Positions 11,687 through 35,113 of a stretch of DNA of 64,000 nucleotides are shown here, piece after piece. Each line of letters begins with the position of its first letter. Within the stretch, counting starts at the first letter, position 1. The notes beneath the pieces were generated by a model. That model searched no databases, was not told the DNA's origin, and saw only the letters and a program-made list of their open reading frames with translations. The translations under genes and the position numbers were made by a program. The stretch covers positions 2,427-66,426 of the forward strand of contig WHUE01000012.1 of NCBI GenBank assembly GCA_009377375.1, read 5' to 3'. Origin of the DNA: Alphaproteobacteria bacterium. Lineage in GTDB: Bacteria > Pseudomonadota > Alphaproteobacteria > MPNO01 > UBA2964.

Positions 11687-11906
11687 TAGGGGGTGCGTTG
11701 GAGCCGGACGGCGGCAGGCTCAACCGGGGCATGACGCAACGAGAGGGGAGCCGGCGTCCCGATCTTGGCGATGGCCGCACGGCGAGACCTGGCTTATCCA
11801 CATCCGTCCACAGGAATCTGCCGCGCGCCGCCTGCGCGGCATTCCGATTCAGCGCCGCGTTCCCTATGGTCCGGGAACGCATAGCCCAACCGGACGGAGA
11901 CGACCC

Positions 11907-12176
11907 ATGACCGACGCCCCTGTCACGCTCGCGCGCGACCACCTGCGCAGCTTCATCGAGAGAATCGAGCGGCTGGAGGAGGAAAAGGCGACGCTCTCGG
12001 CCGACATCCGCGAGGTCTACGCGGAGGCCAAGGGCACCGGGTTCGACCCGAAGATCATGCGCCAGGTCGTGCGGTTGCGCAAAATGGAGCCCAACGACAG
12101 GCAGGAGCAGGAGCACGTGCTCGACACCTACCTCGCCGCGCTCGGCATGCTCGATACGCCGATGGCGGCGGAATAG
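11907..12176 (+). CDS. gapR: GapR-like nucleoid-associated protein (DUF2312)
   Basis: 89 aa; ERLEEEKA...[19 protein letters not shown]......LDTYL matches the Caulobacter GapR family; GGAGACGAC RBS. Confidence 0.8.
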
Positions 12177-31301: not shown

Positions 31302-32387
31302 ATGGCGGAAATCGGACGTATCGGTGTCCTGACCAGCGGCGGGGACTGCGCCGGTTTGAACGCCGCGATCCGCGCGGTGGCCCAGCGGGCCATTCTCGGA
31401 TACGGCTGGCGTGTCTTCGGCATCCACGAGGGCACGCGCGGGCTGATGGACCGCCCGGTCGGCTGCAGGGAACTCACCCTCAGCATGTTCGACGGCAACG
31501 TGCTGCGCATGGGCGGCACCATCCTCGGCACCACGAACCACGGCGATCCGTTCCATTTCCCGATGCCCGACGGCAGTTACAGGGACCGGTCGGCGGAGAT
31601 CGCGGAGGGCTACCATGAGTTGGGGCTCGATGCGCTGATTGCCATCGGCGGCGACGGCAGCCTGTCGATCGTGCGCCGGATCGCCGAGCAGGGCGGGATG
31701 AAGCTGATCGGCATTCCCAAGACCATCGACAACGACGTGCCGTTCACCGAGAACGCCATCGGCTACGTCACCGCCGTCGACGTCGCGACCGAGGCGCTGG
31801 ACCGGCTGCAGCCGACGGCGGCCAGCCACAACCGGGTGATGCTTCTGGAGGTGATGGGGCGCGACAACGGCCATATCGCCATCAATACCGGCATCGCCGG
31901 CGGCGCCGACGTCATCCTGATTCCCGAAATCCCCTACACCATGCAAAGCGTCCGCCAGAAGCTCGAGGCGGTGCGGGCGGCGGGCCGAAACTTCGGCCTG
32001 GTCGTGGTCGCCGAGGCGGTGAAGACCGAGAACGGCGAACCCGTGATCACGCTCGGCCATGACGGCAAGCAGCGGCTCGGCGGGGTCGGCCACTATCTGG
32101 GACGCCGCATCACCGAGGAGACCGGCGCGGAGACGCGGGTAACGGTGCTGGGCCACACCCAGCGCGGCGGTACGCCCAGCCCGCGCGACCGGATATTCGC
32201 GTCCGCCTTCGGGGTTCACGCCGTCGATCTCGTGGCGCAGGGCAAGTTCGACCGTATGGTCGCCTGGGCCAACCGCGCCGTGATCGACGTGCCGCTGCGC
32301 GACGTCATCGATCATAACCATCCGGTCGACCTGAATGGAGCGATCGTGCATACCGCCCGCGGCCTGGGGATATGTCTTGGCGATTGA
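31302..32387 (+). CDS. pfk: 6-phosphofructokinase (group III; phosphoryl donor unclear)
   Basis: PFK domain; the GGDGS motif (Gly104-type) is combined with PKTIDND (Lys124-type). Confidence 0.85.
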   Translation: MAEIGRIGVLTSGGDCAGLNAAIRAVAQRAILGYGWRVFGIHEGTRGLMDRPVGCRELTLSMFDGNVLRMGGTILGTTNHGDPFHFPMPDGSYRDRSAEIAEGYHELGLDALIAIGGDGSLSIVRRIAEQGGMKLIGIPKTIDNDVPFTENAIGYVTAVDVATEALDRLQPTAASHNRVMLLEVMGRDNGHIAINTGIAGGADVILIPEIPYTMQSVRQKLEAVRAAGRNFGLVVVAEAVKTENGEPVITLGHDGKQRLGGVGHYLGRRITEETGAETRVTVLGHTQRGGTPSPRDRIFASAFGVHAVDLVAQGKFDRMVAWANRAVIDVPLRDVIDHNHPVDLNGAIVHTARGLGICLGD

Positions 32388-32463
32388 GCCACAAGGCACC
32401 ATTTCAAATCTGTATGGGCCGGCTCCGGCGGCGTTTCTTGATTGGCAACGATGGAGGTTATCC

Positions 32464-32631
32464 ATGAGCGTTTCGGAACATATCGAAACCCTTCGCGCAA
32501 AGCATCAGAAGCTGGAAGGGAGGCTGGAGGACGAGATCAACCGTCCCCACCCCGACGACACCCTGGTCGCCGATCTTAAAAAGGAAAAGCTCCGGATCAA
32601 GGACGAGCTGGCGCAGCTCACGACGCATTAG
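32464..32631 (+). CDS. DUF465 (YdcH-like) family protein
   Basis: MSVSEHIETLRAKHQKLEGRLEDEI... is a second DUF465 paralog; a hairpin followed by TTTT lies after it. Confidence 0.6.
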   Translation: MSVSEHIETLRAKHQKLEGRLEDEINRPHPDDTLVADLKKEKLRIKDELAQLTTH

Positions 32632-32704
32632 CCGCGCCGCAGACAAGCTGTGGGACCGGCCCGGGGTGGGCGGGCCGGAACAGGCTACGGTTTGTGAAAC
32701 ACAG

Positions 32705-32740
32705 GGGCGGATGCCGGGATCAGGCGCCGCCCTTTTGCAT
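32705..32740 (+). terminator. candidate rho-independent terminator after the DUF465 gene
   Basis: GGGCGG...CCGCCC stem followed by TTTTGC. Confidence 0.4.
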
Positions 32741-32751
32741 GTCCGGGGCGC

Positions 32752-33060
32752 TCAGGCCGTGACGGCGGCGACCGGCGCCGGGGCGCTGCCGGTCCGCGCG
32801 GCCCGGCGATAAGCCGCGGCGGCGCCGGCGGCTATGGCGCCCGGACCCTCATCCTCGAGCATGATCTGGCCGATCTGCTGCGCCACATAAGGCACGGCGG
32901 ATGCGACGGCGAAGGCGCTGCTGGCGGCGACGCGCCGGATGGCGGCATCCCGCCCGGCCGCCGCCCTGCTTCCGGCGAGGCGGAAGGTGGGGTCGCCGGC
33001 CGCGGGCCGCTCGCGGTAGCTGCGGGGCCGGAAGGCCTTGCTGGCAGGGAGAATCTTCAC
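32752..33060 (-). CDS. hypothetical protein (weak call)
   Basis: ORF of ordinary GC content whose start abuts the AT-rich island; no recognisable family. Confidence 0.25.
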   Translation of the reverse strand: MKILPASKAFRPRSYRERPAAGDPTFRLAGSRAAAGRDAAIRRVAASSAFAVASAVPYVAQQIGQIMLEDEGPGAIAAGAAAAYRRAARTGSAPAPVAAVTA

Positions 33061-33084
33061 CCGATGCTTCCGATAGATGGTCAG

Positions 33085-33205
33085 TCCGAAGCAGCAAACT
33101 TAGTGAAAAATAAATAAAAATCAACGAAAAATTAATGTAATTCCTAATATAGTTAATATTAATTAACATTAATCGGATTCAGACATCGTCTGTTAAGCAT
33201 AGCAC
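33085..33205. promoter_or_regulatory. AT-rich island (about 15% GC core) in a divergent promoter region
   Basis: aaaaataaataaaaatcaacgaaaaattaatgtaattcctaatatagttaatattaattaacattaat; multiple TTAA/ATTAA repeats. Confidence 0.6.
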
Positions 33206-33385
33206 TGGGCCGCAGAATTCTGCCAAAAATATAAAGCCGGGCTTATGCACCGCAAACGCGGCGGTCGACGGTGTTTTTAACAAATTAGAAAGAGCTGCTG
33301 TCCTATCGTCAGGCCGTACCCCTTCGCCCCGTGCGGCAGGGGTGCAGGCTCCCATGTAGGGGGCGTGTTTTGCAGGAAGCAGAGT

Positions 33386-35113
33386 ATGAGCGACTCAACC
33401 CACCAGCTTGAGCGCCTGCAGGCCGCTTACGAGGCCTCCGGCGATCTCGCCTATGACTGGAATCTCGTCGATGACGGGATCGCCTGGCTGGGCGGCAATC
33501 CGGCGAGTCTGGGGCTTCCGGCGTTCAGCGAGCTGTCGAACGGCGAAGCCTTCCATCAGCACATCCATCCCGACGATCTGACCGTTCGCCTGGAAGCGCT
33601 CTCGGCGCTCTACAAGGGGCGGCGCTCGTTCGAATGCGAATTCCGCTGCCGCGGCGGCGACGGCCGCTTCAGGCGTTTCCACGACCGCGGCGTGGCGGTC
33701 TATGGCCCCGACGGCCGCCCCTTGCGGCTGTCGGGCATTCTGCGCGCGGTCGGCGGGCAGCGTCGGGAGCCTTTGCGGGACCGCCATTTTGCCGATTACG
33801 ACGAGTTGACCGGCCGCTACAGCCGCACCCGTCTGCACGAGGCGCTGGATCAGGCGATCTACTATGCGCTGCGCTACGACGTGTCCGGCGCCTTCATGGT
33901 GGTGGGGGTGGACAAGATCAACGTGGTCAACCAGGCGTTCGGCTACGAGGTCGCCGACGCGATCATACTGGCCATCGGCCAGCGACTGGACCGCTGCCTG
34001 CGCGCCAGCGACACGGTGGGCCGGCTTGGCGGCGACCGCTTCGGCGTCGTGCTGACCAACTGTCCCTCCTCGGACGTGCCCCAGGCGGCCGAAAAGCTGC
34101 TGGAGATCGCGCGCAACACCCGGATCGACACCCCGTCGGGGCCGATTCACGTCACCGTGTCGGTCGGCGCCGTGGTGTTCCCGCGTGCGATCCGCGCCTC
34201 GGTCGATGCCGTGACCAAGGCCGAGATCGCGCTGCAGAACGCCAAGCGGGCGAGCAGCAACTCGTGGTCGGTCTACAGCTATTCCGAAGAGCAGCGCCGC
34301 GACCACCGCCGCAACATGGTGGTCGCGGAACAGGTCAAACGGGCATTGACGGACGAGCGTCTCGCGCTGGCGTTCCAGCCCATCGTGCGCGCCAGCGATC
34401 ACGTGCCCGAGATGCACGAATGCCTGCTGCGCATGACCCTGCCGGACGGCGAGCTCGTGCCCGCCGGGGCCTTCATGCCGGTTGTCGAGGAGCTGGGGCT
34501 TATCCGCCTCATCGACAAGAGGGTGCTGGAGCTGGCGATCGCCCAGATGGACACGCACCCGGCGGCGCGGCTCGCGGTCAACGTTTCGGCGCTGACGGCG
34601 ACGAACCGGTCATGGCTGAGCGGCACGGTCGCCGCGCTGCGCCCGCGCCCGGAAATCGCCGAGCGGCTGACGGTGGAGATCACCGAAACCGCGGGGCTCG
34701 ACGACGTGGAGGAATGCGCGCGTTTCGTCGCCACGCTGCGCGACCTCGGCTGCCGCGTCGCGCTGGACGATTTCGGCGCCGGCTACACCTCGTTCCGCCA
34801 TCTCAAGATGCTCGCCGTCAACATGGTGAAGATCGACGGCTCCTTCGTCCGCGACATCGCCAACAACCCGGACAACCTGATCTTCATCCGCACCCTGATC
34901 GGCCTCGCCGGCAATTTCGGCCTCGACACGGTGGCCGAATGCGTCGAGCACATGGAAGAGGCCACGCTGCTGCGCGATGAAGGGGTGCAGTATCTTCAGG
35001 GCTATGCCTTCGGCAAGCCGTCCCTGATCCCGCCCTGGCCCTCCGCCGCGCCGCGCCAAATCGCCGCAGCGCCTGCGGAGCGCGTCAGACTGGGGCAGCG
35101 CCGTCTCGGCTGA
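33386..35113 (+). CDS. PAS-GGDEF(degenerate)-EAL signalling protein, likely a c-di-GMP phosphodiesterase
   Basis: GGDEF motif degenerate to GGDRF; EAL domain has QPIV, ECLLRM (in place of EALLRW), EITE, DDFGAGYTS, KIDGSF. Confidence 0.8.
   Translation: MSDSTHQLERLQAAYEASGDLAYDWNLVDDGIAWLGGNPASLGLPAFSELSNGEAFHQHIHPDDLTVRLEALSALYKGRRSFECEFRCRGGDGRFRRFHDRGVAVYGPDGRPLRLSGILRAVGGQRREPLRDRHFADYDELTGRYSRTRLHEALDQAIYYALRYDVSGAFMVVGVDKINVVNQAFGYEVADAIILAIGQRLDRCLRASDTVGRLGGDRFGVVLTNCPSSDVPQAAEKLLEIARNTRIDTPSGPIHVTVSVGAVVFPRAIRASVDAVTKAEIALQNAKRASSNSWSVYSYSEEQRRDHRRNMVVAEQVKRALTDERLALAFQPIVRASDHVPEMHECLLRMTLPDGELVPAGAFMPVVEELGLIRLIDKRVLELAIAQMDTHPAARLAVNVSALTATNRSWLSGTVAALRPRPEIAERLTVEITETAGLDDVEECARFVATLRDLGCRVALDDFGAGYTSFRHLKMLAVNMVKIDGSFVRDIANNPDNLIFIRTLIGLAGNFGLDTVAECVEHMEEATLLRDEGVQYLQGYAFGKPSLIPPWPSAAPRQIAAAPAERVRLGQRRLG

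Follow-up and report, generated by a model that had tools for sequence, protein, structure and literature searches.

The short AT-rich island found in the window (by which we mean the whole stretch of 64,000 nucleotides analyzed here) probably forms the AT-rich center of a conserved promoter/operator region that would work in both directions, serving a small minus-strand gene and a plus-strand PAS-GGDEF-EAL gene. Conservation of the island's position and composition, of a dyad within it, of promoter-like hexamers at its edge, and of a promoter-like box and a hairpin farther downstream is seen directly, as is the co-occurrence of the island with the small gene, and the coordinates of these features are collected in Table 1. 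Judged from the sequences compared, the island is neither a scar nor a product of chance.

Table 1. Features in and around the AT-rich island, in order of position in the window (strand "." denotes a feature that is not assigned to a strand).
Feature	Position	Strand	Basis
Divergent small gene, 102 aa, GTG start, uncharacterized family	32752..33060	-	Conserved homologues
AT-rich island	33096..33173	.	Maximal AT segment and lowest GC of the window
Candidate -10 hexamer TAAGTT of the small gene	33097..33102	-	TTGAYW-N16/17-TAnnnT arrangement conserved
Three A5 tracts	33106-10, 33116-20, 33127-31 (span 33106..33131)	.	Direct-repeat family D1, spacing 10 and 11 bp
Candidate -35 hexamer TTGATT of the small gene (plus-strand block AAAAATCAA)	33119..33124	-	Block conserved; promoter scan
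Outer 8-bp inverted repeat ATTAATGT / ACATTAAT around the dyad	33131..33173	.	Repeats I17 and I3
20-bp dyad TTAA-TA-TTAA-TTAA-CA-TTAA, candidate operator	33153..33172	.	Palindrome I5
Palindrome GCAGAATTCTGC, followed by CAAAAATAT	33212..33223 (to 33232)	.	Conserved in close clade
Promoter-like box, TTAA-N7-GAAA (33277-33291) then CCTATCGT (33302-33309)	33277..33309	+	Columns invariant in alignment A2
Leader RNA hairpin GGCTCCC-ATGTA-GGGGGCG	33347..33365	+	20 nt before the Shine-Dalgarno; flagged as terminator-like site
PAS-GGDEF-EAL gene	33386..35113	+	Pfam PAS_3, GGDEF, EAL

A preliminary description of this DNA had reported an AT-rich island of about 80 bp and about 15% GC, and both figures were borne out: the island (AAACTTAGTGAAAAATAAATAAAAATCAACGAAAAATTAATGTAATTCCTAATATAGTTAATATTAATTAACATTAAT) measures 78 bp and has 14.1% GC (A42 T25 C6 G5), in a window of 70.2% GC. 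The lowest 80-bp stretch of the 64-kb window has 16% GC (z about -8 relative to the mean of the window, 70%), and the second-lowest such stretch has 44%. On a scale that counts +1 for AT and -2 for GC, the island scores 45 and the best other island of the window scores 13, so the drop in GC was rightly called unusual. Moreover, an AT-island scan, of the kind that the preliminary description had proposed for the whole genome, detected no island scoring at least 20 in 190 kb of flanking DNA from relatives with at least 60% GC, and no comparable island was found in the approximately 250 kb of other sequence examined. The three A5 tracts, placed 10-11 bp apart, are present in the window's clade; their phasing was considered as a conserved curvature signal and rejected, as the periodicity is not significant (it was matched in 293 of 2000 shuffles) and is missing in distant relatives. 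It was also observed that three metagenomic contigs of close relatives (L009/L018, L015 and L016) end within the 330-bp intergenic region, perhaps because coverage is low or assemblies break at the AT-rich stretch.

Ordinary chromosomal genes surround the island, among them def, purE, a phosphofructokinase gene (31302-32387) and a DUF465 gene (32461-32631). The order runs from the DUF465 gene through the 102-aa minus-strand ORF and the island to the PAS-GGDEF-EAL gene, which is followed by phaA and phaB. A phosphodiesterase-type gene had been placed 180 bp downstream, and the start codon of the PAS-GGDEF-EAL gene does lie 181 bp beyond the end coordinate given at that time, that is, 213 bp beyond the end of the island as delimited here. 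The open reading frame on the other side had been called weak and divergent: divergent it is, but it turns out to be a real, conserved gene. The GapR homolog that had been noted in the same window could be confirmed as well (11907-12176; PF10073, E=2e-36). A perfect DnaA-box 9-mer, TTATCCACA, the sole exact match in the window, is located at 11794-11802, 105 bp upstream of the gapR start at 11907.

We then compared the locus with those of relatives. Syntenic loci were gathered by exact-protein look-ups and by a metagenome scan with the PAS region of orthologues; a scan of genome contigs with the phosphodiesterase protein contributed one useful locus only, and a first metagenome scan with a small-protein profile returned no matches. 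In every syntenic relative, at 51-70% GC, the strongest AT island of the locus occupies the same intergenic position, with the divergent small ORF on one side and the PAS-GGDEF-EAL gene on the other. Counting as island-bearing those loci whose island scores at least 25, and detecting the small ORF by an iterated profile, we found this ORF in 33 of the 35 island-bearing loci versus 5 of the 30 island-less ones, the remaining 25 of which are without it (Fisher p=7.5e-11, a phylogenetically uncorrected value that overstates the support because the loci are not phylogenetically independent). Wherever it occurs, the small ORF is encoded on the opposite strand, immediately upstream of the phosphodiesterase gene. 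Locus L001 has neither the small ORF nor the island, yet its phosphodiesterase gene still has the promoter box and the leader. The preliminary description had placed the island upstream of the PAS-GGDEF-EAL gene, which is correct as to position; the feature that the island tracks across loci, however, is the divergent small gene. In close relatives, the identity of the island and that of the third codon positions of the small ORF are nearly the same (0.92 and 0.92, 0.80 and 0.81, 0.77 and 0.74), and most island positions therefore drift at a roughly neutral rate. The alignments point to the AT composition and a few short blocks as the parts held by selection.

Homologues of the small protein share the motifs RDAL.FR, APY(V/L)AQQIGQ and AAY(R/Q)RA, and no relatives of it were found in Pfam, NCBIfam or PDB. 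The family is narrow, with 21 clusters matched among 1.84 billion representatives and approximately 58 homologues at 90% clustering. The matching clusters are of about 100-130 aa, save for two long repetitive proteins that are probably spurious matches, and no fusion to a known domain occurs among the 21 clusters. The AlphaFold model of the protein displays a disordered basic N-terminus and two helices, at a pLDDT of 59 that makes it too weak for a fold search. The N-terminus carries a PRG/GGRP-like stretch, and the AQQIGQ helix is conserved. As a matter of speculation, the protein could be DNA-binding or a partner of the phosphodiesterase.

Hexamers at the left edge of the island are read here as a candidate sigma-70-type promoter of this small gene. 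In the window, the arrangement TTGATT-N16-TAAGTT agrees with the consensus at 7 of 12 positions, and the built-in promoter scan reported none. Block AAAAATCAA is kept in the window and in L014, L016, L017, L006, L007 and L024. Better matches to the consensus are found in other relatives, namely TTGACT-N16-TATAAT in L011 and TTGACT-N16-TAGAAT in L010 (10-11 of 12 positions), and L008/L013 carry TTGACA-N16/17-AAATAT or AATATA at the same site. Across relatives, the -10 hexamer ends 24-36 nt ahead of the start of the small gene, the window being at about 36 nt before the GTG. An inverted repeat, TGCTTCCGA / TCCGAAGCA, was also observed at 33065-33093, within what would be the small gene's leader; the GGAAG Shine-Dalgarno falls within its 3' arm on the minus strand, and the repeat is not clearly conserved in L014.

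The right part of the island carries a 20-bp dyad, with the pattern TTAANNTTAATTAANNTTAA, that is, TTAA-N2-TTAA-TTAA-N2-TTAA; the string quoted in the preliminary description, TTAATATTAATTAACATTAAT, corresponds to 33153-33173. The TTAA motifs of the island start at 33132, 33153, 33159, 33163 and 33169, and start-to-start distances within the island are 6, 4, 6 and 10, which gives spacings of N2, N0 and N6, never N7. The dyad is present exactly in L008, L013, L015, L016, L017 and L023, and with one mismatch in L006, L007, L014, L020 and L024, hence in 11 loci from several lineages at 51-70% GC. In all carrier loci its start falls at -228 to -236 relative to the ATG of the phosphodiesterase gene, although clades share just 35-50% identity over the DNA that separates it from the next conserved box. 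As the pattern was derived from the window, a shuffle test on the window itself is circular and the independent tests are those on other lineages, where 0-18 of 5000 dinucleotide shuffles per island matched the dyad (L006, L007, L008, L013, L023 and L024). Over the 35 islands, TTAAnnTTAA was observed 27 times versus 2.0 expected and TTAA-N6-TTAA 23 times versus 2.2 expected, and TTAACC occurs 37 times versus 8.2 expected in the islands of the relatives. The most distant island-bearing lineages retain only the half unit TTAAC(C/T)TTAA. To our knowledge, the dyad, which is unique in the window, matches no named regulator's motif. Given its fixed distance to the ATG of the phosphodiesterase gene, the dyad may mainly serve that gene. 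The IHF consensus WATCAANNNNTTR, judged by eye, fits L007 only and was discarded.

Regarding the gene downstream, the closest solved structures to the PAS-GGDEF-EAL protein are PA0861, MorA and DosP. Its GGDEF motif is degenerate (GGDRF) and the EAL signature is kept (ECL, EITE, DDFGAGYTS, and also KIDGSF), which makes a phosphodiesterase role plausible and upholds the original assignment as a c-di-GMP phosphodiesterase-type gene; going by these residues, the protein probably acts as a phosphodiesterase only, with a regulatory GGDEF domain. Ahead of this gene lies the promoter-like box, which is unique in the window and lies at about -109 from the ATG. About 30 of the 72 distinct loci, some of them island-less, have a TTAA-N7-[GT][AT]AA motif at -97 to -132, mostly at -104 to -117. 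The reading of the box as a sigma-54 promoter was rejected by eye against consensus spacings (GG-N8-GC rather than N10), as was, also by eye, that as an ECF/EcfG promoter (CGTT is not conserved).

The leader hairpin is found in 34 of 66 loci, with an invariant loop A(A/T/G)GTA and closing pairs (C/T)C..GG. Of its cells, 90.5% are paired versus 73% after shuffling and 43-58% after sliding, a percentage biased upward because the sequences were picked for showing the hairpin. The variety of pair types is free from this bias: double changes number 45 versus 15.7, and the stem covaries by compensation. In addition, the hairpin is predicted independently by RNAalifold, and as it is without an Rfam match it may be an undescribed cis-regulatory RNA motif. 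Since box and hairpin also occur without the island (L001, L018, L043 and others), the phosphodiesterase gene has expression signals of its own. Between island and box lies the perfect palindrome at 33212-33223, which may be a second operator; in L016 it reads GCGGAATTCCGC, with both arms changed, and GCCAAwwwAT persists in the L008 group and in low-GC relatives.

Altogether, these features can be arranged into a model in which the start sites, the protein binding and the direction of regulation are what we infer. The left third of the island would hold the small gene's core promoter of the sigma-70 type, with a 16-nt spacer between its hexamers, and transcription would be predicted to start near 33090, so that the leader would measure about 30 nt. 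DNA at about -40 to -60 would act as an AT-rich, UP-element-like region. The dyad, whose center lies at about -72 relative to this predicted start and at about -223 relative to the ATG of the phosphodiesterase gene, would most likely bind a dimeric or tetrameric sequence-specific regulator, as yet a putative one. The phosphodiesterase gene would be transcribed from its own box, TTAA-N7-GAAA ... CTAT, with a leader of about 75 nt ending in the conserved hairpin beside the ribosome-binding site; as the dyad stands at a fixed distance from that box, both promoters may respond to it. Selection would hold the AT-richness against a background of 70% GC, and the duplex would be of low stability between two diverging transcription units. 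The same composition would also be expected to draw AT-seeking nucleoid proteins, of the GapR or the MucR type.

That such proteins are the whole explanation, the island being solely a landing pad which GapR or a MucR/Ros-type silencer coats and by which both promoters are tuned or silenced, seems rather unlikely to us. The composition does invite it: with 86% AT over 78 bp near a predicted start and gapR encoded in the window, the island is a predicted GapR site, and with its A5 tracts, 13 T-A steps and two AAATA cores (33108 and 33112) it is a candidate MucR/Ros site too. GapR is widespread in alphaproteobacteria, and its gene, 21 kb distant, is no specific pointer to the island. In the literature, AT-dependent GapR peaks are found no more than 100 bp from start sites, which they activate (PMC13408042), MucR-type proteins require a 5-bp AT core that contains a T-A step (AAATA, for example) and leave pure A-tracts unbound (PMC5693944), and MucR1 prefers AT-rich DNA in GC-rich genomes, where it co-controls CtrA-dependent G1 promoters (PMC4083442); these reports would support a part for nucleoid proteins in general terms only. 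What the reading of composition cannot explain is an exact 20-bp dyad at a fixed position in lineages of 51-70% GC; moreover, tblastn with an approximate MucR query gave no match in the 64-kb window. A contribution of nucleoid proteins is compatible with the promoter/operator explanation, as the two are not exclusive. That the island is a group of CtrA (or SciP) sites through which the cell cycle would control the gene pair is, in our assessment, very unlikely, even though the island has its TTAA repeats, TTAACC and the exact 8-mer TTAACCAT are enriched in the islands of relatives (the latter in 7 of 35 versus 0.8 expected), and the phosphodiesterase box combines TTAA with a second A-rich half-site 11 bp farther on. 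Definitions of the CtrA box and the SciP motif are available (PMC4083442). The preliminary description had already recognized that the TTAA repeats are not exact CtrA boxes, and TTAA-N7-TTAA is indeed missing from the entire window; where it further suggested near-matches to CtrA half-site spacing, the arrangement is instead a specific conserved dyad with N2 and N6 spacings. Without an N7 full site, the island lacks the defining feature of a CtrA site. In the 35 islands, TTAA-N7-TTAA was observed 7 times versus 2.2 expected, an enrichment equal to that of N8, against the roughly tenfold enrichment of N2 and N6. The half-site TTAACCAT is absent from the island, which carries TTAACAT (33163-33169) instead. 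The only CtrA-like 11-bp geometry is the TTAA-N7-GAAA of the box, 100 bp outside the island, where the second half-site is GAAA or TAAA and not TTAA; going by geometry alone, an OmpR-family regulator (such as CtrA) could act there.

It is highly improbable that the island is a plus-strand promoter for a long structured leader, or for a small RNA, running towards the phosphodiesterase gene. The constant distance from dyad to ATG would suit such a transcript, as would the GC-rich hairpins seen ahead of the TTTT of the box in several lineages. Against it, Rfam gave no match: over 32000-34000, its covariance models (c-di-GMP riboswitch classes included) returned two chance-level hits with E of at least 1.1, far below the gathering scores. 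In addition, hairpins before the T-run compared with shuffles gave z values from -2.5 to +1.0, mostly near 0, RNAalifold found no conserved structure from the island to the box, and this stretch has the low identity between clades given above. A terminator or small RNA ending at the T-run before the box was rejected likewise, the hairpins being no better than shuffles and without a consensus structure. As for a scar of foreign or mobile DNA, or the unwinding element of a replication origin, the abrupt drop in GC is the only point in favor, and we regard this explanation as almost certainly wrong. A scar is hard to reconcile with an orthologous position in many lineages and with housekeeping genes as neighbors; neither terminal inverted repeats nor target-site duplications were detected, plasmids gave no match, and the motif has no further copies in the window, which also speaks against a mobile element of the MITE kind. 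An origin is contradicted by the lack of any DnaA box within 20 kb of the island, the nearest match being the one at 11794, and of a GC-skew switch in the window.

Returning to the bidirectional promoter/operator region, its most far-reaching form would be that the four-TTAA dyad, the small helical protein and the phosphodiesterase with a degenerate GGDEF domain make up a module for c-di-GMP control that is undescribed so far and belongs to an uncultured clade of alphaproteobacteria. The small protein would then be an autoregulator binding the dyad or AT-rich DNA, or else a partner of the phosphodiesterase, and the leader hairpin a cis-regulatory RNA motif not described before; all of this together we consider distinctly unlikely. 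Overall, the locus illustrates that an 80-bp AT island in a 70% GC genome can be a selected, positionally conserved regulatory element, and not foreign DNA. It also supplies testable parts for a c-di-GMP phosphodiesterase locus from a clade that is represented by metagenomes only, namely a small-protein promoter, a 20-bp dyad, a CtrA-like box and a covarying hairpin. Should the binder of the dyad be identified, or the small protein's role, control by nucleoid proteins or transcription factors would be linked to c-di-GMP turnover in these bacteria.

Several known systems bear comparison with this region. With the CtrA box and the CtrA/MucR-controlled G1 promoters of Caulobacter (PMC4083442) it shares TTAA motifs in a GC-rich alphaproteobacterium, AT-rich DNA beside a promoter whose box is formed by TTAA and an A-rich half-site one helical turn on, and a PAS-GGDEF-EAL target. 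It departs from the CtrA box TTAA-N7-TTAA in having no N7 full site, N2/N6 spacings in the island and GAAA as the second half-site of the box. Like AT-dependent GapR sites (PMC13408042), it presents an AT-rich tract less than 100 bp from a predicted start in a genome that encodes gapR. GapR, however, reads composition and topology, not a fixed dyad. Moreover, divergent promoter regions carry negative, not positive, supercoils, which is a further difference from GapR sites. With the many T-A steps of its right half and its AAATA cores, the island recalls targets of Ros/MucR and H-NS-type proteins (PMC5693944, PMC9410896); those are typically horizontally acquired genes, whereas here the AT-rich DNA is limited to 78 bp and the genes beside it are syntenic core genes rich in GC. 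Bidirectional sigma-70 promoter regions offer the remaining parallel, with two divergent genes, candidate hexamers at a 16-nt spacer and AT-rich DNA upstream of the -35, and the dyad, at about -72 from the predicted start, is placed like class I-type sites near -70. Unlike in those regions, the contrast in composition is extreme (14% versus 70% GC), and a four-TTAA dyad without a named regulator stands at a fixed distance of about 113 bp from a second promoter box. The element is thereby of an ordinary kind, and its dyad motif is an undescribed one.
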